DNA from: Bacteroidetes bacterium UKL13-3
GTDB lineage: Bacteria > Bacteroidota > Bacteroidia > UKL13-3
Length of the DNA: 64,000 nt
Assembly (NCBI GenBank): GCA_001602415.1
Contig: CP012155.1
Span: 1,718,718-1,782,717 of the forward strand
Direction: 5' to 3'
The notes under the pieces are model-generated. The model ran no database searches and was not told the origin of the DNA. It worked only from the letters and a program-made list of their open reading frames with translations. The position numbers and the translations under genes were made by a program. Shown here in pieces: positions 9,362-45,689 of this stretch (the first letter of the stretch is position 1; every line of letters begins with the position of its first letter).

Positions 9362-10129
9362 TTATGCCTTCCTATGAATCACACTCGCAATGGGTTGCGC
9401 AGTTGGCATGATGGTAAGTTCGTTAATGTTTATATGCGGAGGGCGCGAAAGTGCAAACCAAATAGCTTCGGCAATATCTTGCGCTACCAAGTTTTCAAAT
9501 CCGGTATAAACAGTTTTAGCACGTTCGGCATCACCATGGAAACGTACAATGCTAAACTCAGTTTCTACGGCTCCTGGATGTATCGCTGTAACTTTTATAG
9601 GGTATTGCGCCAAATCAATTCGCATGGCTTTGTTTAATGCGTCAACTGCATGTTTGGTGGCACAGTATACATTTCCATTGGCATACACTTCTTTGCCTGC
9701 AATACTTCCAATATTAATAATATGACCTTTGCCATTTGCAATCATTAATGGCGTAACGTTTCGAGTTACATACAACAACCCTTTTACGTTGGTATCAATC
9801 ATTACATCCCAATCATCAATATCACCTTTTTCAATTGGCGCCAAACCACTTGCCAAACCCGCATTATTAATGAGTACTTCAATACCTTTCCAACCTTCAG
9901 GCAATTGCTCAATTGTTTGTGTAACATCCAATCTGTTTCTTACATCCAATATGCGTATTAAAGAGTTGCAGTTATACTGTTTATAAAGCGTATCGGCTAG
10001 CAATGCGAGTTTATCTTCCCTGCGGGCAATTAATAATAAATCAAATTCGTTGGCTGCTAAAATATGAGCAGTTGCCACGCCAATTCCGGCCGAAGCTCCT
10101 GTAATACATGCAATGCGTTTAGTTGACAT
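9362..10129 (-). CDS. SDR family NAD(P)-dependent oxidoreductase
   Basis: TGASAGIG Rossmann motif, NNAG, and a Y...K catalytic pair (YCATK). Confidence 0.85.
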   Translation of the reverse strand: MSTKRIACITGASAGIGVATAHILAANEFDLLLIARREDKLALLADTLYKQYNCNSLIRILDVRNRLDVTQTIEQLPEGWKGIEVLINNAGLASGLAPIEKGDIDDWDVMIDTNVKGLLYVTRNVTPLMIANGKGHIINIGSIAGKEVYANGNVYCATKHAVDALNKAMRIDLAQYPIKVTAIHPGAVETEFSIVRFHGDAERAKTVYTGFENLVAQDIAEAIWFALSRPPHININELTIMPTAQPIASVIHRKA

Positions 10130-10206
10130 GGTAATTTTTTTTGGTGGGTAAAAATAATAGAATATTTGAGTGGGTTGGTTATTTTTACAAGATTAAAAAT
10201 CGAATC

Positions 10207-10587
10207 ATGAATTATACTATCGAAAAAAATGATCAGTATTCGTTAATTAAAACCGACCTAACTGCTTTTAATAAAGAGACATGTGCTAAGCTTCGCGAGA
10301 AGGTATTGCACGAAGTTGCCAGTAGTAGCAAATATGTTATCGTAAATATTTCGGGTGTAAATGAATGTAATGCAGATGGCACTAGAGAGCTTATTCAATT
10401 AGGAGTTGATTTGCAAGAGAATGATGGATTGTTAATTTTAACACATGCCAATGATCAGTTTACCCGATTGTTTAACAAGGCAGATATTACTTTTATTCCG
10501 ACAGATGTTGAAGCTGTTGATTTTGTGTTTATGGATCAGTTGGAAAAACAGTTTTTAAATATGACGGACGATGATTTGAGCCTATGA
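10207..10587 (+). CDS. STAS domain protein (anti-sigma-factor antagonist-like)
   Basis: About 126 aa from MNYTIEKND. STAS-like topology (VIVNISGVNECNADGTRELIQL). Its stop overlaps the rnz start (ATGA). Confidence 0.55.
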   Translation: MNYTIEKNDQYSLIKTDLTAFNKETCAKLREKVLHEVASSSKYVIVNISGVNECNADGTRELIQLGVDLQENDGLLILTHANDQFTRLFNKADITFIPTDVEAVDFVFMDQLEKQFLNMTDDDLSL

Positions 10588-11501
10588 GTATTGAACTAAC
10601 GATTTTAGGCAACAGTTCGGCTACACCCACGCTTAATAGGTTTCCTTCGGCACAGTACCTCAATATGCTCGATCACCACATATTGATTGATTGTGGTGAG
10701 GGAACACAAATGCAGTTGCGTAAATACAAGATTAAAAAATCAAAACTGCATTATATTTTTATAAGCCATGTGCATGGCGATCACATACTCGGATTGCCGG
10801 GATTAATTTTTTCGATGAACCTAAACAGTAGGCTTGAACCCCTTCATATTTTTGGTCCGGCAAGCTTGTTTGAAATATTAGATATGTTTCTCAAACATTC
10901 AGATACACGTTTACGATTTGACATAGTTAAACACATCACAGATGATTCTAAACGGGAAGTTATTTTTGAAAACATGCTCATCAAGGTAACGTCATTCCCT
11001 TTATATCATAGAATTCCCACCACAGGTTTTATTTTTGAAGAACAATCTCGCTTACGTAAGTTAAATATTGAAGCGTGCGAACGTTACCACATACCGTTTA
11101 CTTTTTATAATGATATTAAACGAGGGAAGGATTTTATTAGTGCAGATGGGAAAACAGAAATTAGTAATGAAAAATTGACTTATGATTCAGGTCTACCCAT
11201 AAGATATGCTTATTGTTCTGATACAATCTATGATAAAAGGGTTATTAATGAGGTACGTGATGTAGATTGGTTATATCATGAATCAACTTTTTTGCATGAA
11301 AAACTTGAACGAGCCATTGAAACCAAACATACAACAGCCAAACAAGCCGGAATGGTTGCCAAAGAGGCTAATGTAAAAAACTTACTCATTGGGCACTTTT
11401 CATCCCGATACGAAGACTTAAACGAGCTATTGGAGGAGGCCAAAACAGAATTTCCACAAACAGAAATTGCCGAAGAGGGCATTACGTTTGTGTTCGAATA
11501 A
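10584..11501 (+). CDS. rnz: ribonuclease Z (tRNA 3' endonuclease)
   Basis: Metallo-beta-lactamase motif SHVHGDH; length 305 aa; ILGNSSATPT N-terminus typical of RNase Z. Confidence 0.85.
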   Translation: MSIELTILGNSSATPTLNRFPSAQYLNMLDHHILIDCGEGTQMQLRKYKIKKSKLHYIFISHVHGDHILGLPGLIFSMNLNSRLEPLHIFGPASLFEILDMFLKHSDTRLRFDIVKHITDDSKREVIFENMLIKVTSFPLYHRIPTTGFIFEEQSRLRKLNIEACERYHIPFTFYNDIKRGKDFISADGKTEISNEKLTYDSGLPIRYAYCSDTIYDKRVINEVRDVDWLYHESTFLHEKLERAIETKHTTAKQAGMVAKEANVKNLLIGHFSSRYEDLNELLEEAKTEFPQTEIAEEGITFVFE

Positions 11502-11518
11502 GAATAAAGGTTTTCCGG

Positions 11519-14407
11519 TTATGCAGTTAACTTCTCTTTTAGGTATTTTCCGGTATAGCTTTCTTTTACTTTAATTAACTCTTCGGGTGTTCCTTCAAAC
11601 ACCAAATTTCCACCTTTATCGCCCGCTTCCGGACCTAAATCTACAACCCAATCGGCACATTTGATTACATCCATATTGTGTTCAATAACAATAATGGAAT
11701 TGCCTTGGTTAATTAATGCATCAAAGGATGCAAGTAGTTTTTTGATATCGTTGAAGTGCAACCCCGTAGTAGGTTCATCAAAAATAAACAATACATGATC
11801 ACTGTTTTTTCCACGACCTAAAAATGAAGCTAATTTTACACGTTGTGCTTCACCTCCTGATAGTGTATTGGATGATTGTCCGAGTTGAACATAGCCCAAT
11901 CCAACATCTTGTAATGGTTTAATTTTATTGGTGATGGAAGTTTCTTCTGTAAAAAAAGCAATGGCCTCATCTACGCTCATGTTCAGAACATCGCTAATAT
12001 GTTTGCCGTGCACTTTTACGTCCAAAATTTCTTCTTTAAAACGGGCACCTTTGCATTCTTCACATGGCAAATGTATGTCAGCCATAAACTGCATTTCAAT
12101 AGTTACCTCGCCTTCGCCTTGACAGGTTTCACAACGTCCGCCATCTACATTAAACGAAAAATGCTGGGGTTTATAGCCTCGGCTTTTTGAGATGGCTTGT
12201 GATGCATAAAGTTCACGGATGGTATCGTAGGCTTTTATATAGGTAATTGGATTTGAGCGAGATGATTTTCCGATAGGATTTTGATCAACCATCTCAATTT
12301 GTTTAATGCTTTTTACATTTCCTTCCAAACTATCATGAGCTCCCGTTTTTTCACCATTGTATGTGCCTAATTGTTTTTGTAATGCTGGATATAAAATAGT
12401 TTTAACCAAGGATGTTTTACCCGAACCAGAAACACCTGTAACCACTGTTAATACATGTAATGGAAAACGAGCATCTACACCTTTTAAGTTATGCTGCCGA
12501 GCTCCCTTGATTGTGATGAAATCACTCGCTTTTCTGCGTTTTTCAGGAACAGGAACCTCTTCTTTTCCACTTAAATATTTTCCTGTAAGACTGTTTTTGT
12601 TCTGCAATACTTCTTTAAAAGTACCTTGTGCAATGAGCTGTCCTCCGTTTACTCCAGCCTCAGGTCCTATATCAATTAATTGGTCGGCAACTTTCATGAG
12701 GTCTTCATCATGTTCAACAACAACAACTGTATTGCCAATATCACGAAGTTTCTCCAATACGCCAATGAGTTTTTCGGTATCGCGCGAGTGCAATCCGATA
12801 CTTGGCTCATCCAAAATATACAACGAACCAACAAGGCTGCTTCCTAGTGAAGTGGCTAGGTTTATGCGTTGCGATTCACCTCCCGAAAGTGTGTTTGATA
12901 AACGATTGAGTGATAAATATCCCAGACCTACATTTTGCAAAAAACTTAACCGTGAAGAGATTTCGGTGAGAATACGTTTGGCAATGGAAGCGTGTTGTTC
13001 GCTCAAGCTTAAAGAGCTAAAGTAAATGACCGCTTCGTCAATACTCATTAACAAAATTTCGGATAAGGAACGAAAATCATTCATGCTACCTTTCTTGATG
13101 GCAGTATTTACAATGCGAACATAGTTGGCATCTTTACGCAAGCGAGTTCCTTTGCAATCTGGGCAAGTAGTTTTTCCGCGGTATCTCGCCAACATTACGC
13201 GGTACTGAATTTTGTATGTTTGACGTTCTAAGTCTTTAAAAAAGCCGTTTATTCCTTCCCATGTTGCATCGCCTTGCCACAAAAAATCTTTTTGAGCGGT
13301 GGTTAATTCGTGATACGCTTTGTGAATGGGGAATTTGTTTTTAACACTGAGTTTAATGAAATGAGCTTTCCATTCACTCATTTTTTCACCTTTCCAAGGC
13401 ACAATTGCATCGGCATAAATGGAGATACTTTTATCGGGCACAACCAAATCTTCATCAATACCAATTACCGAACCAAATCCCTCACAGGTTTTACAAGCTC
13501 CGTATGGATTGTTGAAACTAAAAAAGTTTACGTTCGGTTCCTCGAAGGTTATTCCATCCAACTCAAATTTATTGCTAAAATACTCTTGCGTGTATGAGCC
13601 ATCTTCTTGCACAATGTGTATGGAACATTCCCCGTGACCTTCAAAAAAGGCTGTTTGAACAGAGTCGGCTAATCTGTTTTGAAAATCTTCATCATTGTGA
13701 ATGATAGCAAAACGGTCAATCAATAAGAATAAATTGAGATTTGAGATTTGAGAATTAGGATTTGTGCTATCTGATTTTTTTGTTTTCGGATTTTGAATTT
13801 CCGATTTCGTATTTTCTTCTAGGTACTCTTCAATATCAACAGGTTTTTCGTCTATTAATAACCTAGAGAATCCATTCTGCAAATAAATTTCGAGTTGCTT
13901 TTTTAAGTCATTTTCGGGAGTTATGGGAACAACCAACAACACACGGGTATCTTCCACTAAGGCCAATAATTTATTCACTACACCTTCAACAGTATCACGT
14001 TTAACTTCTTTACCCGAAACAGGAGAGAAGGTAACACCTGCGCGGGCAAACAAAAGTTTTAGGTAATCATAAATTTCGGTGGTGGTAGCAACTGTTGAGC
14101 GAGGGTTGCGTGTATTTACCTTTTGCTCGATGGCAATTGCTGGCGAGATACCGTGAATATAATCAACATCGGGTTTGTTCATCTTGCCCAAAAACTGACG
14201 CGCATAAGCCGATAAACTTTCTACATATCGCCTTTGTCCTTCGGCATACAGCGTATCAAAAACCAATGATGATTTACCCGAGCCAGAAACGCCTGTTACT
14301 ACAGTGAGCTGATTGCGAGGAATGGTAACATCTATATTTTTTAGGTTGTGCACTCGTGCACCTTTGATAACGATGTCTTTGGTTTTTTGTTCGCTCTTAA
14401 ATTTCAT
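11519..14407 (-). CDS. uvrA: excinuclease ABC subunit A
   Basis: Two ABC ATPase modules (GVSGSGKSSL twice), zinc-finger Cys clusters and LSGGE signatures. Likely start MKFKSEQ (14407); an upstream ATG lies at 14431. Confidence 0.9.
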   Translation of the reverse strand: MKFKSEQKTKDIVIKGARVHNLKNIDVTIPRNQLTVVTGVSGSGKSSLVFDTLYAEGQRRYVESLSAYARQFLGKMNKPDVDYIHGISPAIAIEQKVNTRNPRSTVATTTEIYDYLKLLFARAGVTFSPVSGKEVKRDTVEGVVNKLLALVEDTRVLLVVPITPENDLKKQLEIYLQNGFSRLLIDEKPVDIEEYLEENTKSEIQNPKTKKSDSTNPNSQISNLNLFLLIDRFAIIHNDEDFQNRLADSVQTAFFEGHGECSIHIVQEDGSYTQEYFSNKFELDGITFEEPNVNFFSFNNPYGACKTCEGFGSVIGIDEDLVVPDKSISIYADAIVPWKGEKMSEWKAHFIKLSVKNKFPIHKAYHELTTAQKDFLWQGDATWEGINGFFKDLERQTYKIQYRVMLARYRGKTTCPDCKGTRLRKDANYVRIVNTAIKKGSMNDFRSLSEILLMSIDEAVIYFSSLSLSEQHASIAKRILTEISSRLSFLQNVGLGYLSLNRLSNTLSGGESQRINLATSLGSSLVGSLYILDEPSIGLHSRDTEKLIGVLEKLRDIGNTVVVVEHDEDLMKVADQLIDIGPEAGVNGGQLIAQGTFKEVLQNKNSLTGKYLSGKEEVPVPEKRRKASDFITIKGARQHNLKGVDARFPLHVLTVVTGVSGSGKTSLVKTILYPALQKQLGTYNGEKTGAHDSLEGNVKSIKQIEMVDQNPIGKSSRSNPITYIKAYDTIRELYASQAISKSRGYKPQHFSFNVDGGRCETCQGEGEVTIEMQFMADIHLPCEECKGARFKEEILDVKVHGKHISDVLNMSVDEAIAFFTEETSITNKIKPLQDVGLGYVQLGQSSNTLSGGEAQRVKLASFLGRGKNSDHVLFIFDEPTTGLHFNDIKKLLASFDALINQGNSIIVIEHNMDVIKCADWVVDLGPEAGDKGGNLVFEGTPEELIKVKESYTGKYLKEKLTA

Positions 14408-22752: not shown

Positions 22753-25700
22753 ATGCGCATACCCCGTTTTTTAGTATTCATTGGATTTGTTTTGTTGGGC
22801 GCTTTACGAAGTGTTGGACAATCGTGTACCATCATTATCAGTGATAGTGTTTTGTGCGAAGGAGCCACAATGCCTTTTACGGTGAATGTATCGGGAGGCA
22901 CACCAACAGCCTACTCCTGGAATTTTGGTGATGCTTTTACGGCTTCAACTTCAGCCCCAAGACACACTTATACAGTTGCCGGAACGTATTTTCCTACTGT
23001 AACTGTTACCTTTTCGGGTGGTGCAAGTTGTTTGGCAACTGCTCCAAGGGTAAGGGTGTTTGCCAATCCAAAATCGAAGTTTACCATCACCACCAATGAT
23101 TCAATGTGCTTTAAAGGAAACAACTTATGTGTCCTCGATCAATCAACTCCCGGAAGTTCCAATGCACCCATCAAAAAAAGAATTTTTCAGTTAAGCAATG
23201 GATACATTCAGCGCGATTCTGTGCCATATTCTCCCAATATTTGTTATCAAAATACCACTGACGTTTTAGGGCATCTTTACACACTTGTGTTAGAGGTGTC
23301 CGATACGAACAATTGTGTAAGTCGTCTGCAAAAAGCTGATTCGGTAAGATTGTTTCCTAAAAATCCTGATATTGTTTTTCAAACCAATTATACCCCAACG
23401 TGTGGTGATGTGTTAGCCAATTTTATCAATAGCTCTGGCATGCCAATCAATAATGTAAGTAAGTTTTATTGGGATTTTGGTGATGGCAGCAGAGATAGTG
23501 TTTTTTTTAATGCCGTAGCCCATATTTTTGCCAAGCCTGGTCCGTATTTACCCAAATTATATGTGTTAGATAAAAACAACTGTGCAGATACTGGAGTTTC
23601 AAGTTATTTGGTGCAAACTATCGTGCCTGATTCAATCATTCGAAGTACCACGCCATTGAAACAATGTTTTAATCAGCATGAATTTACATTGTTCTCAAAA
23701 AATCCTACAGGCAATTCATTTTGGTCGGTTTACGATGGGAATACTCGCATTGATACAACATTGTCACCCAAGGATACCCTAAAATTAAAATTTATAAAAT
23801 GTGGTATCTTTAAAGTAAGGCTGACCGTATTTTTTACAGATTGTAAGTTTACCAAAGATACCGTTGTTGTTGTGTGGGGACCACAAGCCAAAATACAAGA
23901 TATTTCAGATGTAAATACACGGATCAAACATGGTTCACAGTGCGAAATATTCGATACCATTCGCTACAAAACACCTGTTCCATATTTGAATTGTACTTAT
24001 GGGAATGGAAGTATTTATCATTTATGGGATTTTGGAGACGCTTTTGCTCCGCCATGCACAACCGATACGAAAAATGGTTTAAACGTGGGTGTGAACTGCA
24101 ATTTTTCGCTTGATTCGATGAATGTGCAACACATGTATACTCCCGGAAAGGAGGCATGTTACTTAACCAAATTGTATATCAAGGATTCGGTTACAGGTTG
24201 CGTACATTATGATTCGGTTTCATTGTCGCTCACACAACCCAATGCTCACCCTGATACAAATGCAGTTCAAAGGCGAAGAGGTATTTATGTTGAAGGTGAT
24301 CAATGCTTGCCAACAACCATTAAAATAAGAATGGAAGAAACGCTGCCTTCTTGCTTTTATGAACGAGCATGGATTAATCCAGACTCGGCATGCAATAAAA
24401 ATAATTGGATTTTAGCCGATACATTTAACCTTCGTTTCTATAATTATAATTACAATTCAACATGCAGCAGTAATGGATACGTAACCATTGGAATCATTAT
24501 TAAAAATGGTCAGGATAAGAATGGAAATGATTGTTACGATACCGCTTGGTACCACAATATTTTGCGATTGGTTCCAATTAATGCTAACGTAAACTTCACC
24601 ATACAACGTGGATGTGAAAATTCGCCAACACTGTTTAAAGCAGAAGATAGCATTCAATATGAAATTAAGCGTGTAACTTGGGATTATACATCTCGATTAG
24701 TGTATGGTGAAACTGGCAATGGGTATAGTATTAATAACGAAAAAACGCCAACCGATACCCTTAGCCAACTATTATCTGAAACAGATTCTGTCATCAATGC
24801 CCAATCATTCAACTTCAGAAAAAATGGTGTGTACACAATGCTTACCAAATTTGTCTCCAAACAAGGATGTTCGCGCACCAGCGCAAGACTTATAGCCGTT
24901 GGTTATTTTGCAGGCTTTAAAGCTAGTAATGTAAACTGTTTAGGGGATAGTATCACGCTTACCGAAAAAATACAATATTACAGCAGTGCAAATGCAAACT
25001 ATTTACATCCTACAGAATATTGGAAAATGCCAAGCAGAGAGGCCGCGAACAAAGAAAAAATTTGGTGGGATATTGGTGATGGAAAAGGTTTTGCATATAC
25101 AGGTTCTCTTCCTAAAATAAAATATGACAAGCCCGGAACGTATACCATTAAAATGCTTACACGTGATAGTTTGGGTTGTTTAGATACGCTTGTAAAAGTA
25201 GATTATATAAAAGTTGTTCAGTTAAAACCTAAGATTGGCTTGTTGCAGAATACCTATTTTTGTGCGCCTCAAATAGTCCAGTTTACCGATGCTTCTATGG
25301 TTATTGATAGTTTAGGTGCAACGGTTAAATCAACAACCGATTCGGTTAAAATTCGTTTTTGGGATTTTGGAGATGCAACACCAACAAGCTTGTTTATCGA
25401 TCCTGCGCACAACTTTGTTTCTAACGGTACCTACACCATCACTTTAAAAGCAACCACTCAAAATGGTTGTGAGGATACGGCACAAGCTGAAATAGAATTA
25501 AAAGGCCCTAAACCATCGTTTGATATCATTGATACAATTGGTTGCGAGCCTTTTCAAACATTGTTTATAAATACTACAGGGAAGCAGCTTAAAACATGGA
25601 CATGGTATTTTGGTGATCCGGCCAATCAAACCTTCACTACTTCAAGCGATACTGCTGTTCCTTTTAAATACCTCAATGCCGGTGTATATGATGTTAAGCT

Positions 25701-26619
25701 GTTGGGCACAGAAAATATATTTAATCCAAGTACGGGAAACACAGTAATTTGCAACGCATTTTTCCCGGATCCCTTAACTCGCTTGCCCGAACGTAGGGTT
25801 TATGTGTTGCCAACACCTCCGCTTGATGTTGTTTCAAAAGATAGTATTTGTCCCAATGAAGAACTCAAACTTACTGCCATTGGTGATTCGGTTTATAAAA
25901 ACTTAACATGGATATATGGTGATGGTGATTCTCTGAAAACCCAACGACCCGATACGGTTGTAACCCATGCGTTCAAAAAATCGGGAACGTATGCTTTTAT
26001 GCTTATCCCAATTAATAGTAGTGGATATGAATGTGCGGATACAGTTAGGAAAAACATTGTTGTTTCGGATGTAACTGCCAACTTTAGTATCGACTCGAGT
26101 GATGCACCTCGATATACTTTTGTAAATGAAAGTTCAGTCAGTGCGGTTCGTTATGTGTGGTCGTTTGGAAAGCTATTCGCTGGTTCAAACAATCAATCAA
26201 CCGCAACAAATGGTGTGTTTAACTTCGGTTCTGATACCGGAACATTCAATGTATGCTTGATGGCATTTAACAAAGAGGATTGTTTGGATTCGCTGTGCAA
26301 ATTTATTCATGTTGATTTTGCCAGAGTGATAATTCCCAATGTGTTTACACCCGACAATAACGACAATAGGAATGATGCCTTTGATATTGATATTGTTGGT
26401 TTTACTAAATATGAATTACAGATTTTCAATAGGTGGGGTAGAGAGGTTTTTATGGCAGATAAAGATGGTGTTGGAAATGACGGAATCAACTGGAATGGGA
26501 AAGATCACAACGAAGGTGAAATATGCGCAGCCGGAGTATATTATTTTATTTTCAGTTACAAACTCATCACAGAACAATCACCCAAAACGGTTCATGGAAC
26601 AATTACACTTATCCGCTAA
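22753..26619 (+). CDS. 1288-aa multi-PKD-domain surface protein with T9SS type-B (gliding-motility) C-terminal sorting domain
   Basis: Signal peptide. At least 7 PKD-like W(D/N)FGDG repeats. C-terminus IIPNVFTPDNNDNRNDAFDI...IFNRWGREVF matches the CHU_C / T9SS type-B domain. Confidence 0.8.
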   Translation: MRIPRFLVFIGFVLLGALRSVGQSCTIIISDSVLCEGATMPFTVNVSGGTPTAYSWNFGDAFTASTSAPRHTYTVAGTYFPTVTVTFSGGASCLATAPRVRVFANPKSKFTITTNDSMCFKGNNLCVLDQSTPGSSNAPIKKRIFQLSNGYIQRDSVPYSPNICYQNTTDVLGHLYTLVLEVSDTNNCVSRLQKADSVRLFPKNPDIVFQTNYTPTCGDVLANFINSSGMPINNVSKFYWDFGDGSRDSVFFNAVAHIFAKPGPYLPKLYVLDKNNCADTGVSSYLVQTIVPDSIIRSTTPLKQCFNQHEFTLFSKNPTGNSFWSVYDGNTRIDTTLSPKDTLKLKFIKCGIFKVRLTVFFTDCKFTKDTVVVVWGPQAKIQDISDVNTRIKHGSQCEIFDTIRYKTPVPYLNCTYGNGSIYHLWDFGDAFAPPCTTDTKNGLNVGVNCNFSLDSMNVQHMYTPGKEACYLTKLYIKDSVTGCVHYDSVSLSLTQPNAHPDTNAVQRRRGIYVEGDQCLPTTIKIRMEETLPSCFYERAWINPDSACNKNNWILADTFNLRFYNYNYNSTCSSNGYVTIGIIIKNGQDKNGNDCYDTAWYHNILRLVPINANVNFTIQRGCENSPTLFKAEDSIQYEIKRVTWDYTSRLVYGETGNGYSINNEKTPTDTLSQLLSETDSVINAQSFNFRKNGVYTMLTKFVSKQGCSRTSARLIAVGYFAGFKASNVNCLGDSITLTEKIQYYSSANANYLHPTEYWKMPSREAANKEKIWWDIGDGKGFAYTGSLPKIKYDKPGTYTIKMLTRDSLGCLDTLVKVDYIKVVQLKPKIGLLQNTYFCAPQIVQFTDASMVIDSLGATVKSTTDSVKIRFWDFGDATPTSLFIDPAHNFVSNGTYTITLKATTQNGCEDTAQAEIELKGPKPSFDIIDTIGCEPFQTLFINTTGKQLKTWTWYFGDPANQTFTTSSDTAVPFKYLNAGVYDVKLLGTENIFNPSTGNTVICNAFFPDPLTRLPERRVYVLPTPPLDVVSKDSICPNEELKLTAIGDSVYKNLTWIYGDGDSLKTQRPDTVVTHAFKKSGTYAFMLIPINSSGYECADTVRKNIVVSDVTANFSIDSSDAPRYTFVNESSVSAVRYVWSFGKLFAGSNNQSTATNGVFNFGSDTGTFNVCLMAFNKEDCLDSLCKFIHVDFARVIIPNVFTPDNNDNRNDAFDIDIVGFTKYELQIFNRWGREVFMADKDGVGNDGINWNGKDHNEGEICAAGVYYFIFSYKLITEQSPKTVHGTITLIR

Positions 26620-42978: not shown

Positions 42979-43459
42979 ACTTTTCGAACACTAAACACGA
43001 CATTGCATTTCAAATGAAACTAAAAATCGTTTCGGTGTTTTTGTTTGCATTGTTTTGAATAGTGGTTGCCTTTCAGGGTTATGGTAAAGTTCGTGCTAGT
43101 AATAATCATATTGTACAAACAATAAGAAATGAAGTACCTAATAAATCCTTGAGTATTGTATTGCTCAAATGTCTTACTAAAGGCATTAACATGGTTGAAG
43201 AGGATTTTAGCGATGAACATCCTGATGGTGACAGCTCAAATGACGAAGCGTTCATACCTTCCTTCCTTAATCACACCGCAGTTGGTTGTTGCATAAGTTT
43301 TTCTTTCAAAGCTATTAGGCACGTCTCCAAACAACATCCTCTCCTCAAAATATTTACACCTCCCGATGTACTTACTTCATAAGCTCTTGCTCAATTTTTG
43401 AGTGGGGGTATTTTTACAGATGAATATTCGTCTGTGTAAATTTAAAGCGACTATTTTTC

Positions 43460-45018
43460 ATGAGAGAAGAAATTAATTTACAGCCCTTATCGGCCAAATA
43501 TCTTAAATACGATTTACCAGCTGGACTTGCGGTGTTTTTTGTAGCTGTGCGGTATTGCACATGCATCAGGAGCTCCGCTTATTTCGGGTTTAATAACCGG
43601 AATGTTGGGTGGCGTAATTACTGGTTTAATAAGCAATTCGCAATTAAGCGTAAGTGGTCCAGCCGCTGGCTTAACAGCAATTGCTATAGCAGGTATAATC
43701 AAGTTGGGCTCGTTTGAGGCTTTTTTACTTGCCACAGTTTTTGCAGGAATTATTCAAATACTTTTGGGTGTTTTTAGAGTTGGTTTTATAGCTAATTACA
43801 TACCAAGTACCGTTATCAAAGGCATGCTATCAGCCATCGGTTTAATTCTTATTATTAAACAATTTCCACATGTAATTGGCTATGATATTGAAGAAATGGG
43901 GGTTGAGGAATTTGCAGTAACAGCTCAGGATATGAACGAGTTGTATAAAGAAAGTAAAGCAGCCGAAACCAATACGTTTACCATTTTTATGCATCCCCTC
44001 AATAATCTTAATCGAGGTGTTTTGTTTATCGGCTTGGTTAGTCTGATTTTTCTTGTTGTTTGGGACAGGTTTTTCCAAAAACGGTATAAGGCGTTACCCG
44101 GATCATTATTGGTGGTGTTAATTGGAATTGCTATCAGCTATTTGTTAGAGCATTTCTTATTTTCCTCTCCCTTGGGACAAGATCACTTTGTGAATATTCC
44201 AAAACTTGATTCTATAACAGCATTTTTGCATGTGAGTAAATTCCCCAACTGGAGTGTTGTGTCCAAATACGCGGTTTACAGCACAGCATTTACCATTGCT
44301 ATTGTTGCATCAATAGAAACATTATTATCAGTGGAGGCCGTTGATAAACTTGATCCGCAAAAGCGTAAAATACCTGCAAATAGAGAATTAATAGCACAAG
44401 GTATTGGCAATACCCTTGCCGGATTGTTGGGTGGATTATCTATGACAGCTGTAATTGTTCGTGGTTCGGTTAACGTATCGGCCGGTGCTCAAACCAAATT
44501 AGCAACCATTATACATGGTTTACTTATTGTAATTGCAGTAGTTTTTTTAGCTCCATTGATGAATCTTATTCCTTTAGCTTGTTTGGCTGCGGTACTTATT
44601 TATACCGGATATAAACTATTGGCGCCTCAATTAGTATTTGAACAATTTTAAAAAGGCTGGGGGCAGTTTATTCCTTTTGTGGTAACGGTATTAGCCATTG
44701 TGTTTTCTGATTTATTAATTGGAGTAAGCATTGGAATTGTTGTTTCACTTATTTTTATTGTGAAAGAAGATTACCAGGGTACGGTTCTTTCTGTTAAGGA
44801 TTATGGTACTCGTAAACGAATTGTGTTGGGAGAAAACATAACGTTCTTACACAAACCCAAACTAGCTCAAATATTGGATGAAATACCTAACCATTGAACG
44901 CTGGAAATTGATGGCTCCCGCAATTTTTATATTGATAAAGACATCATCGAACTCATCATCGACTTTAAAGCAAAGGCATCTCAAAAAAACATTGAACTCA
45001 TTATAGGAGGAATAAAAC
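43460..45018 (+). pseudogene. disrupted SulP-family anion transporter with STAS domain (frameshift near 43545-43560; in-frame TAA at 44649-44651; in-frame TGA at 44895-44897), reading in frame into the beta-carbonic anhydrase ORF
   Basis: N-terminus LKYDLPAGLAVFFVAV is in one frame. The conserved continuation LCGIAHASGAPLISGLITGMLGGVITGLISNSQLSVSGPAAGLTA is in another. The reading then goes FEQF*KGWGQFIPFVVTVLA and EIPNH*TLEIDGSRNFYIDKD, i.e. clear SulP TM and STAS sequence continuing through two stop codons. Confidence 0.55.
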
Positions 45019-45020
45019 AA

Positions 45021-45689
45021 ATGCAAAACGAAGACTTACAAGAAAGCATGCGTAAATCATACGACCGCTTGTTCATCAATAACGAAAAATGGATTGAGGC
45101 ACGCACCAAGGAAGATCCTGAATATTTTCATAAATTAGCTAAAGGGCAAACTCCGCAGTATCTTTTTATTGGTTGCTCGGATAGCCGCGTTCCTGCGAAT
45201 GAAATTACAGGTACCGATGCTGGTGAAATGTTTGTACATCGTAATATTGCTAATTTGGTAGTTAACACAGATGTAAATATGTTGTCGGTTGTTCAGTATT
45301 CGGTTGAGGTACTCAATGTGAAACATATTATCGTATGTGGGCATTACGGTTGTGGCGGTATTCGTGAGGCAATGCAAAACAGGTCGAACGGACTTATTGA
45401 TAAGTGGCTGCGAAATATTAAAGATGTTATTCGTTTGCATAAAGACGAACTAGATCATATACATGATGACGACTTACGCTACAGACGATTGGTTGAATTA
45501 AACGTGAAAGAGCAGGTTATGAATCTCATGAAAACATCCTTTATTCAGAAGAATATTTCAGAATACGAATTTCCTCAAATTCATGGTTGGGTGTATGATA
45601 TTAGCAACGGGAAAATTGTGGACTTGGAAGTAAATATTGAGGATGAATTTCCGGGATATGGTGATGTTTACAAAATTGATATTGATTAA
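45021..45689 (+). CDS. beta-class carbonic anhydrase (in frame with the upstream STAS-coding sequence; also has its own ATG)
   Basis: GCSDSRV and HYGCGG zinc-ligand motifs; 222 aa. Confidence 0.75.
   Translation: MQNEDLQESMRKSYDRLFINNEKWIEARTKEDPEYFHKLAKGQTPQYLFIGCSDSRVPANEITGTDAGEMFVHRNIANLVVNTDVNMLSVVQYSVEVLNVKHIIVCGHYGCGGIREAMQNRSNGLIDKWLRNIKDVIRLHKDELDHIHDDDLRYRRLVELNVKEQVMNLMKTSFIQKNISEYEFPQIHGWVYDISNGKIVDLEVNIEDEFPGYGDVYKIDID

Follow-up and report, generated by a model that had tools for sequence, protein, structure and literature searches.

Fusions of a SulP transporter to a carbonic anhydrase (CA) were described by Felce & Saier (2004, J Mol Microbiol Biotechnol 8:169; TC 2.A.53), as cited in PMC11423575 and PMC5489568, and the role proposed for them is bicarbonate transport coupled to the interconversion of CO2 and HCO3- by the CA. 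Here we describe a copy of such a fusion in the genome of Bacteroidetes bacterium UKL13-3, at positions 43460-45689 of a 64,000-nucleotide stretch of contig CP012155.1 (the whole of this stretch is called the window below). An earlier, sequence-only reading of the window had taken the locus for a SulP-STAS-CA gene inactivated by one frameshift and two in-frame stop codons, while allowing for assembly errors. Comparison with intact relatives and with independent assemblies indicates that it is very probably a genuine, recently inactivated single gene, which joined a SulP (SLC26-type) transporter to a short STAS domain and a cytoplasmic beta-CA.

When translated in one frame, positions 43461-45689 give SulP sequence that is recognisable from about 43551, two internal stops, and then the CA. 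The start of the gene, codons 1-30 plus one base (MREEINL...FFVAV; MREEINLQPLSAKYLKYDLPAGLAVFFVAV; 43460-43550, plus strand, as are all parts of the gene), lies in the adjacent frame, opened by the ATG at 43460. The SulP transmembrane domain (codons 35-400) follows at 43551-44648 in the same frame as the CA, then the final SulP hydrophobic segment with the first half of the short STAS domain (44652-44894), the second half of STAS (44898-45020), which is open into the CA domain, and the beta-CA part as an intact open reading frame (ORF) of 222 codons (45021-45689). As had been claimed, there is no stop between the end of STAS and the CA methionine: ...IELIIGGIKQ runs directly into MQNEDL... (ATG at 45021) and the first stop after that is the ORF's own, at 45687-45689. 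With 44898-45021 open in this way, SulP, STAS and CA form one ancestral frame, which is what makes a fusion in the sense of Felce & Saier. The conceptual product matched the Pfam families Sulfate_transp (PF00916, 185.9 bits against a gathering cut-off of 23.2), which was also matched in 60/60 orthologues, and Pro_CA (PF00484, 180.5 bits against 25.7), and NCBIfam placed it in the sulP subfamily. The zinc and catalytic set of the CA is present (CSDSR ... HYGC, corresponding to the invariant columns C576, D578, R580, H632 and C635).

To place the lesions, the DNA of 43460-45689 was aligned globally with the intact gene on contig L001, which encodes the closest match of the protein search. The two genes share 95.6% nucleotide identity and differ by 87 substitutions, mostly at third positions, and by exactly three disabling differences. 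The frameshift that had been noticed near 43545-43560 is real, and the alignment refines it to an 11-bp deletion with its junction at 43550/43551, which removes CTTTATGTCTT and with it Pro31-Leu-Cys-Leu34 (PLCL, which 117-118 of 119 homologues have) and causes the change of frame; it has no flanking microhomology, lies outside any homopolymer and is still polymorphic, as described below. Both in-frame stops had been located correctly, as translation and the alignment to L001 agree: the TAA at 44649-44651 replaces the AAA codon of Lys401 (A>T at 44649), cutting off the final hydrophobic segment and STAS, and the TGA at 44895-44897 replaces the TCA codon of Ser483 (C>G at 44896), inside STAS, so that both nonsense substitutions are transversions. 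The uninterrupted membrane-domain frame of the SulP / SLC26 family is thus broken here by the deletion and by the TAA, and by its sequence the locus is a pseudogene of that family and not a functional member. Amino acid replacements specific to the window lineage were also found: within SulP, P331S (Pro in 117/119 homologues) and T308I (44371), the latter on the deletion haplotype only, and in the CA part His561 (Q561H), Leu603 (M603L) and Glu707 (G707E), the last of which replaces a Gly that 110/119 homologues have.

The lesions are reproducible. Exact look-up of the 222-amino-acid CA ORF retrieved seven contigs (L004-L010) from ENA, Logan and JGI assemblies of different samples; the CA ORF is identical on all seven, where it is called as a separate gene, and both the TAA and the TGA are present in 7/7. 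Three of these contigs differ from the window by 10-25 single nucleotide polymorphisms (SNPs), at 99.83-99.90% identity (L007 over 9.6 kb, L004 and L006 over about 20.7 kb), and so on sequence divergence L004, L006 and L007 are independent strains of one species-level population. The deletion, by contrast with the stops, is polymorphic: the window shares it, and Ile308 (ATA), with L005 and L008, but L004 and L006 do not have it. In these two the SulP fragment is 400 amino acids long and codon 308 is ACA (Thr); a Gly218>Glu replacement is found in L006 alone. Because the stops are in all seven assemblies and the deletion is polymorphic, the stops came earlier and the deletion later, which suggests that fixation of both nonsense mutations was followed by the deletion and by further damaging replacements that are still accumulating on sub-lineages.

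That the gene was a fusion before it was inactivated, as the sequence-only reading had proposed, is borne out by its orthologues. A search of a protein collection gave thousands of matches, of which the best 120 were examined; nearly all of these are 735-760 amino acids long with both Pfam domains, and they come from Bacteroidota, Leptospira, Polyangiaceae and Eremiobacterota. At least 119 homologues of 700-770 amino acids have both domains in a single ORF, and the closest of the best 120 matches is P0001 (746 amino acids, 97% identical), encoded on L001. A second intact close relative (L012/L013, 96.9% DNA identity) was reached via a small ORF that lies upstream of the gene. As there are more than 100 intact single-ORF orthologues, the closest two being 96-97% identical in DNA and syntenic, the fusion is, on this comparison, ancestral for the clade. 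A metagenome scan with the family alignment gave 80 more distant relatives (36-63% identity), of which 11 are fused, 41 have SulP followed by a separate CA gene (mostly after a gap of 1-115 nt) and 28 are without a CA in the fetched stretch. Orthologues with separate genes had been named as a check on the fusion; the close orthologues are fused, but with 41/80 of the distant relatives split, and usually as neighbours, fusion characterises this clade and a second, more remote one, not SulP/CA pairs in general. Many of the separate CAs in the distant relatives (L018-L093, for example L030, L033, L061, L073 and L084) begin MKT... and carry approximately 21-47 extra N-terminal residues ahead of the part that aligns to the CA domain, which could be signal peptides and so could make these CAs periplasmic, a topology unlike that of the fused cytoplasmic CA.

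Inactivation was recent. Nei-Gojobori dN/dS between the window and L001 was 0.065 for the whole gene (0.081 for SulP plus STAS and 0.033 for the CA), which falls inside the range of 14 flanking genes in the same comparison (0.015-0.25), and so the suggestion of a recent pseudogene stands. The locus combines reproducible disabling lesions with a near-normal overall dN/dS, which is the pattern of a recent unitary pseudogene. Changes specific to each branch were then counted as nonsynonymous (N) or synonymous (S) in a three-taxon comparison of the window, L001 and L012. In the SulP half, the window branch has 10 N plus 2 stops against 17 S, compared to 7 N against 41 S for the two intact lineages (Fisher P = 0.013), confining the relaxed constraint to the window branch; in the CA half the window branch has 3 N against 17 S (compared with 12:17 in the SulP half, P = 0.064), and eight neighbouring genes on the same branch have 48 N against 144 S. 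Polarisation by the outgroup L011 alone gave a non-significant trend (12:23 against 5:26, P = 0.16), and SNPs within the population (window against L004, L006 and L007) had a high N:S in all genes at such shallow depth. As a rough estimate, constraint may have been absent for no more than some tenth of the window branch.

Some of the evidence weighs against this account, at least in part. The N:S of the whole gene on the window branch (15:34) is indistinct from that of the neighbours (48:144, P = 0.47), so that relaxed constraint is detectable only in the SulP half. The three deletion-bearing copies are identical and may have their origin in one culture or lake, and support for the deletion is weaker than support for the stops. 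The assignment of bicarbonate as substrate is also affected, as the protein scores below the NCBIfam equivalog cut-offs both for BicA (NF050096, 103.1 bits against 880) and for the C4-dicarboxylate transporter DauA / YchM (NF008660, 166.2 bits against 614). The substrate is nevertheless probably bicarbonate, by analogy with the CA fusion itself, with BicA and with the literature.

In the course of events that we draw from these comparisons, the intact sister lineages make one 746-amino-acid polypeptide, whereas in the window lineage Lys401>TAA and Ser483>TGA became fixed, the neighbouring small ORF also being knocked out there (Cys15>TGA). Later, one haplotype gained the 11-bp deletion of PLCL, in the first membrane helix, together with Thr308>Ile, and both are still polymorphic. 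A full-length transporter is precluded throughout: the non-deleted haplotype could make at most a 400-amino-acid product without the last hydrophobic segment and STAS, and the window haplotype at most an N-terminally truncated piece of 349 amino acids. Loss of transport function would be the likely outcome.

The linker domain that bears the TGA deserves comment, as homology to STAS on both sides of this stop had been claimed and it holds only by fold. Neither Pfam (E <= 10) nor a search of the family profile against PDB sequences detected a STAS domain in the window copy or in P0001, and the STAS models PF01740 or PF13466 were matched by only 5-6 of 60 orthologues. An AlphaFold2 model of residues 436-524 (pLDDT 86) has the order beta-beta-alpha-beta-alpha-beta, and its fold matches RsbV and SpoIIAA (anti-sigma antagonists), MlaB and the STAS domains of SLC26A7/A11 with TM scores of 0.73-0.76. 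On the strength of this model, the domain is a true but minimal STAS of about 85 amino acids, which is unusually short.

The alternative that survives best is that the gene is only partly dead and is undergoing fission, the SulP half having been lost while the CA (45021-45689) is made as a free protein from the junction ATG with the aid of a Shine-Dalgarno-like motif; we hold this to be possible but unlikely. The motif, AGGAGGA at 45005-45011 on the plus strand, consists of the last base of the ATA codon of Ile519 and the GGA GGA codons that encode the Gly-Gly of ...IIGGIKQM..., and stands 9-10 nt upstream of the ATG at 45021. As (A/G)GGAGG the motif is conserved at this site in the window, L001, L002, L003, L011, L012, L014, L015, L017, L094, L095 and L096. 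All 10 independent lineages that have Gly-Gly here, two Leptospira included, use GGA as the first of the two codons, and this is so even in one lineage which uses GGA for only 15% of its Gly codons; the column is the only one with a fixed codon among 38 invariant Gly columns, and the product of the GGA frequencies is 1.3e-5. The second Gly codon is GGA in eight lineages, GGG in one and GGC in one, a pattern that matches expectation if GGAGG itself is selected. Two further lineages without GGAGG at the junction have their Met in a displaced position, preceded at 7 and 14 nt by AGGAG or GGAGG. Together this suggests that the junction GGAGG serves internal initiation giving a free CA, or has some other nucleotide-level function.

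Other observations agree with survival of the CA. Its ORF is intact, with its catalytic residues, in all seven assemblies; it is free of lesions, and its N:S on the window branch (3:17) is lower than that of the SulP half, if only at P = 0.064, and not above that of the neighbours. A free CA would be workable, since a separate gene downstream of SulP is the usual arrangement in the distant relatives that have both, and the NCBI annotation of UKL13-3 contains a stand-alone CA of 213 amino acids (AMS28120.1), identical to the window over its annotated length and carrying the His561, Leu603 and Glu707 alleles (the window's RsmB is likewise identical over its annotated length to AMS28119.1 of UKL13-3). 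Against this, Bacteroidia ribosomes are reported not to recognise Shine-Dalgarno sequences (PMC7797042, PMC9976891), and GGAGG or AGGAG occurs within 25 nt upstream in only 2/36 of the ATG-start genes of the window, the junction site being one of the two, a rate typical of the initiation independent of Shine-Dalgarno sequences in Bacteroidota. All three lesions do fall outside the CA, but as the non-CA part makes up 70% of the gene the probability of this by chance is about 0.34; the CA has its three window-specific replacements, G707E among them; Met525, from which it would start, is present in only 74/119 homologues; and the upstream stops could lower downstream transcription by polarity. 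The same idea extends to intact members of the family, which with their conserved internal (A/G)GGAGG and AUG would normally yield both the full-length protein and a free CA, the CA outliving the decayed transporter here; as a whole this too seems doubtful, and it would extend, not contradict, the recent inactivation of the fusion that we favour. If it were true, the gene would be seen here midway through fission and would hold, for Bacteroidota, a rare Shine-Dalgarno-like element maintained by selection. The conservation of GGAGG at synonymous sites across Bacteroidota and Leptospira in any case leads to the idea, which can be tested directly, that two products come from SulP-CA fusion genes, and the conserved internal GGAGG with its AUG is the only element here that might repay experimental follow-up.

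It is very improbable that the cell has an intact gene and that the three lesions are errors of sequencing or assembly. The UKL13-3 genome is PacBio-only, with 211 annotated pseudogenes (PMC5248499), and three lesions within 2.2 kb are suspicious at first sight; against this, the same TAA and TGA are present in the seven independently assembled contigs, which differ elsewhere from the window by SNPs and so exclude the assembly error that had been allowed for, two transversions and an 11-bp deletion outside homopolymers are atypical of long-read errors, and the surrounding 20 kb is free of such defects. Still less credible is recoding, by which readthrough of the stops (TGA or TAA being reassigned or suppressed) and a programmed frameshift would still give the full-length protein, as the good preservation of sequence flanking each lesion is accounted for by recency, the orthologues have Lys and Ser at the stop sites, which fits no known reassignment, the standard code applies because all three stop codons end ordinary genes of the window (TAA 30, TAG 7 and TGA 5, n = 42), and the deletion, which takes out four invariant residues and is missing in two sister haplotypes, is not at a slippery site.

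Recent, genuine inactivation of the fusion is mirrored immediately upstream by the small ORF (43014-43382, plus strand). In relatives this encodes 119-123 amino acids with a hydrophobic, signal-like N-terminus, and its conserved features are an N-terminus of the form MKLKIVS.FLF.LFC, a GINMVEE block and an FTPPD end; it belongs to no Pfam family. In the window the codon of the invariant Cys15 has become a stop (TGC>TGA, 43056-43058), which is also found in L004, L005, L006 and L008, the ORF being intact in L001, L012, L011 and L002 and absent from L003. A GTG at 43062 could give a 106-amino-acid product lacking the N-terminus, and a 106-amino-acid form is on record from 42 contigs. That two adjacent genes are knocked out and their surroundings are intact speaks for the loss of one functional unit and against general decay or poor sequence, and the small protein may have been a functional partner of the transporter.

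The gene order shared by the window and L001 is RsmF, RsmB, GT2, the small ORF, SulP-CA, the convergent PMT_2 and PAP2 genes, PadR and PspC, and over the 22 kb common to the two all other compared genes are collinear and full length with the exception of the small ORF. L011, L002 and L003 (89%, 78% and 71% protein identity) likewise have GT2 - (small ORF) - SulP-CA in this order, and the PMT_2 (ArnT-like) and PAP2 genes are found downstream of SulP-CA in close relatives only. The sequence-only reading had the gene inserted within a lipid-modification gene set; as linkage to GT2 is old (to 71% identity) and linkage to PMT_2/PAP2 is not, synteny rules this out, and the gene is a long-standing neighbour of GT2. 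The CA ORF and the convergent PMT_2 gene overlap in their stop codons (TAA at 45687-45689 for the CA, 45686-45688 on the minus strand for PMT_2), with no intergenic space or terminator between them. In L001 itself the 1.56-kb SulP part (10001-11560) carries 28 lineage-specific synonymous changes, compared to 3 in its CA part and 20 in eight flanking genes (about 8 kb), which hints at the import of this segment by recombination in that lineage. No paralogous SulP or CA gene was found elsewhere in the 64-kb window, and no tRNA genes or Rfam families were found in it; it is densely coding, and no further gene in it was obviously split. The 1288-amino-acid protein encoded at 22753-26619 contains five PKD repeats and ends in a CHU_C domain for type IX secretion sorting, in support of the window's origin in Bacteroidota.

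UKL13-3 is a heterotrophic lake bacterium associated with a bloom-forming cyanobacterium, and its complete PacBio genome (3.24 Mb, 37.3% GC) comes from a co-culture of Aphanizomenon flos-aquae; few biosynthetic pathways are complete in it, and its dependence on the cyanobacterium and gene loss driven by this have already been discussed (PMC5248499). Genes for CA are dispensable at high CO2 and have been lost irregularly in bacteria (PMC3364446). The transporter may have become dispensable in this niche. The locus represents an ordinary, population-wide loss of a gene, of which the stepwise decay is clean and datable, the stops being fixed while the deletion and a damaging replacement are segregating.

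Among systems already known, the membrane domain belongs to the fold family of BicA, the cyanobacterial SulP Na+-dependent bicarbonate transporter (PDB 6KI1; E = 1.6e-18), and also matches SLC26Dg (5DA0; E = 2e-21); BicA differs in having no CA domain, and at 103 bits against a cut-off of 880 the locus is not a BicA orthologue. The CA part is close to the beta-CA of Porphyridium (1DDZ; E = 8.5e-118) and to E. coli Can (YadF; 1I6P; E = 7.8e-58), with which it shares the Cys-Asp-Arg ... His-Cys set; it differs from Can in having been tethered ancestrally to a transporter, and its score on the Can equivalog model (227 bits) is near but below the 251-bit cut-off. The beta-CA3/SulP operon of Methylococcus capsulatus (PMC11423575) resembles the locus in functional pairing and gene order, and 41/80 of the distant relatives are split in like manner, but here the two are fused, and the split look of the window copy comes from lesions inside SulP and STAS and not from the domain boundary. 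A literature search found no experimental study of any member of this clade. The likeness is greatest to the fusions of Felce & Saier, in which a SulP membrane domain, STAS and a C-terminal beta-CA lie in one frame exactly as in the intact orthologues described here; the window copy differs from them in its two stops and deletion, and its clade in having a STAS so short that it escapes Pfam in most members, and the locus is a dead member of an already published type of fusion, of which the CA half alone is still an intact reading frame.

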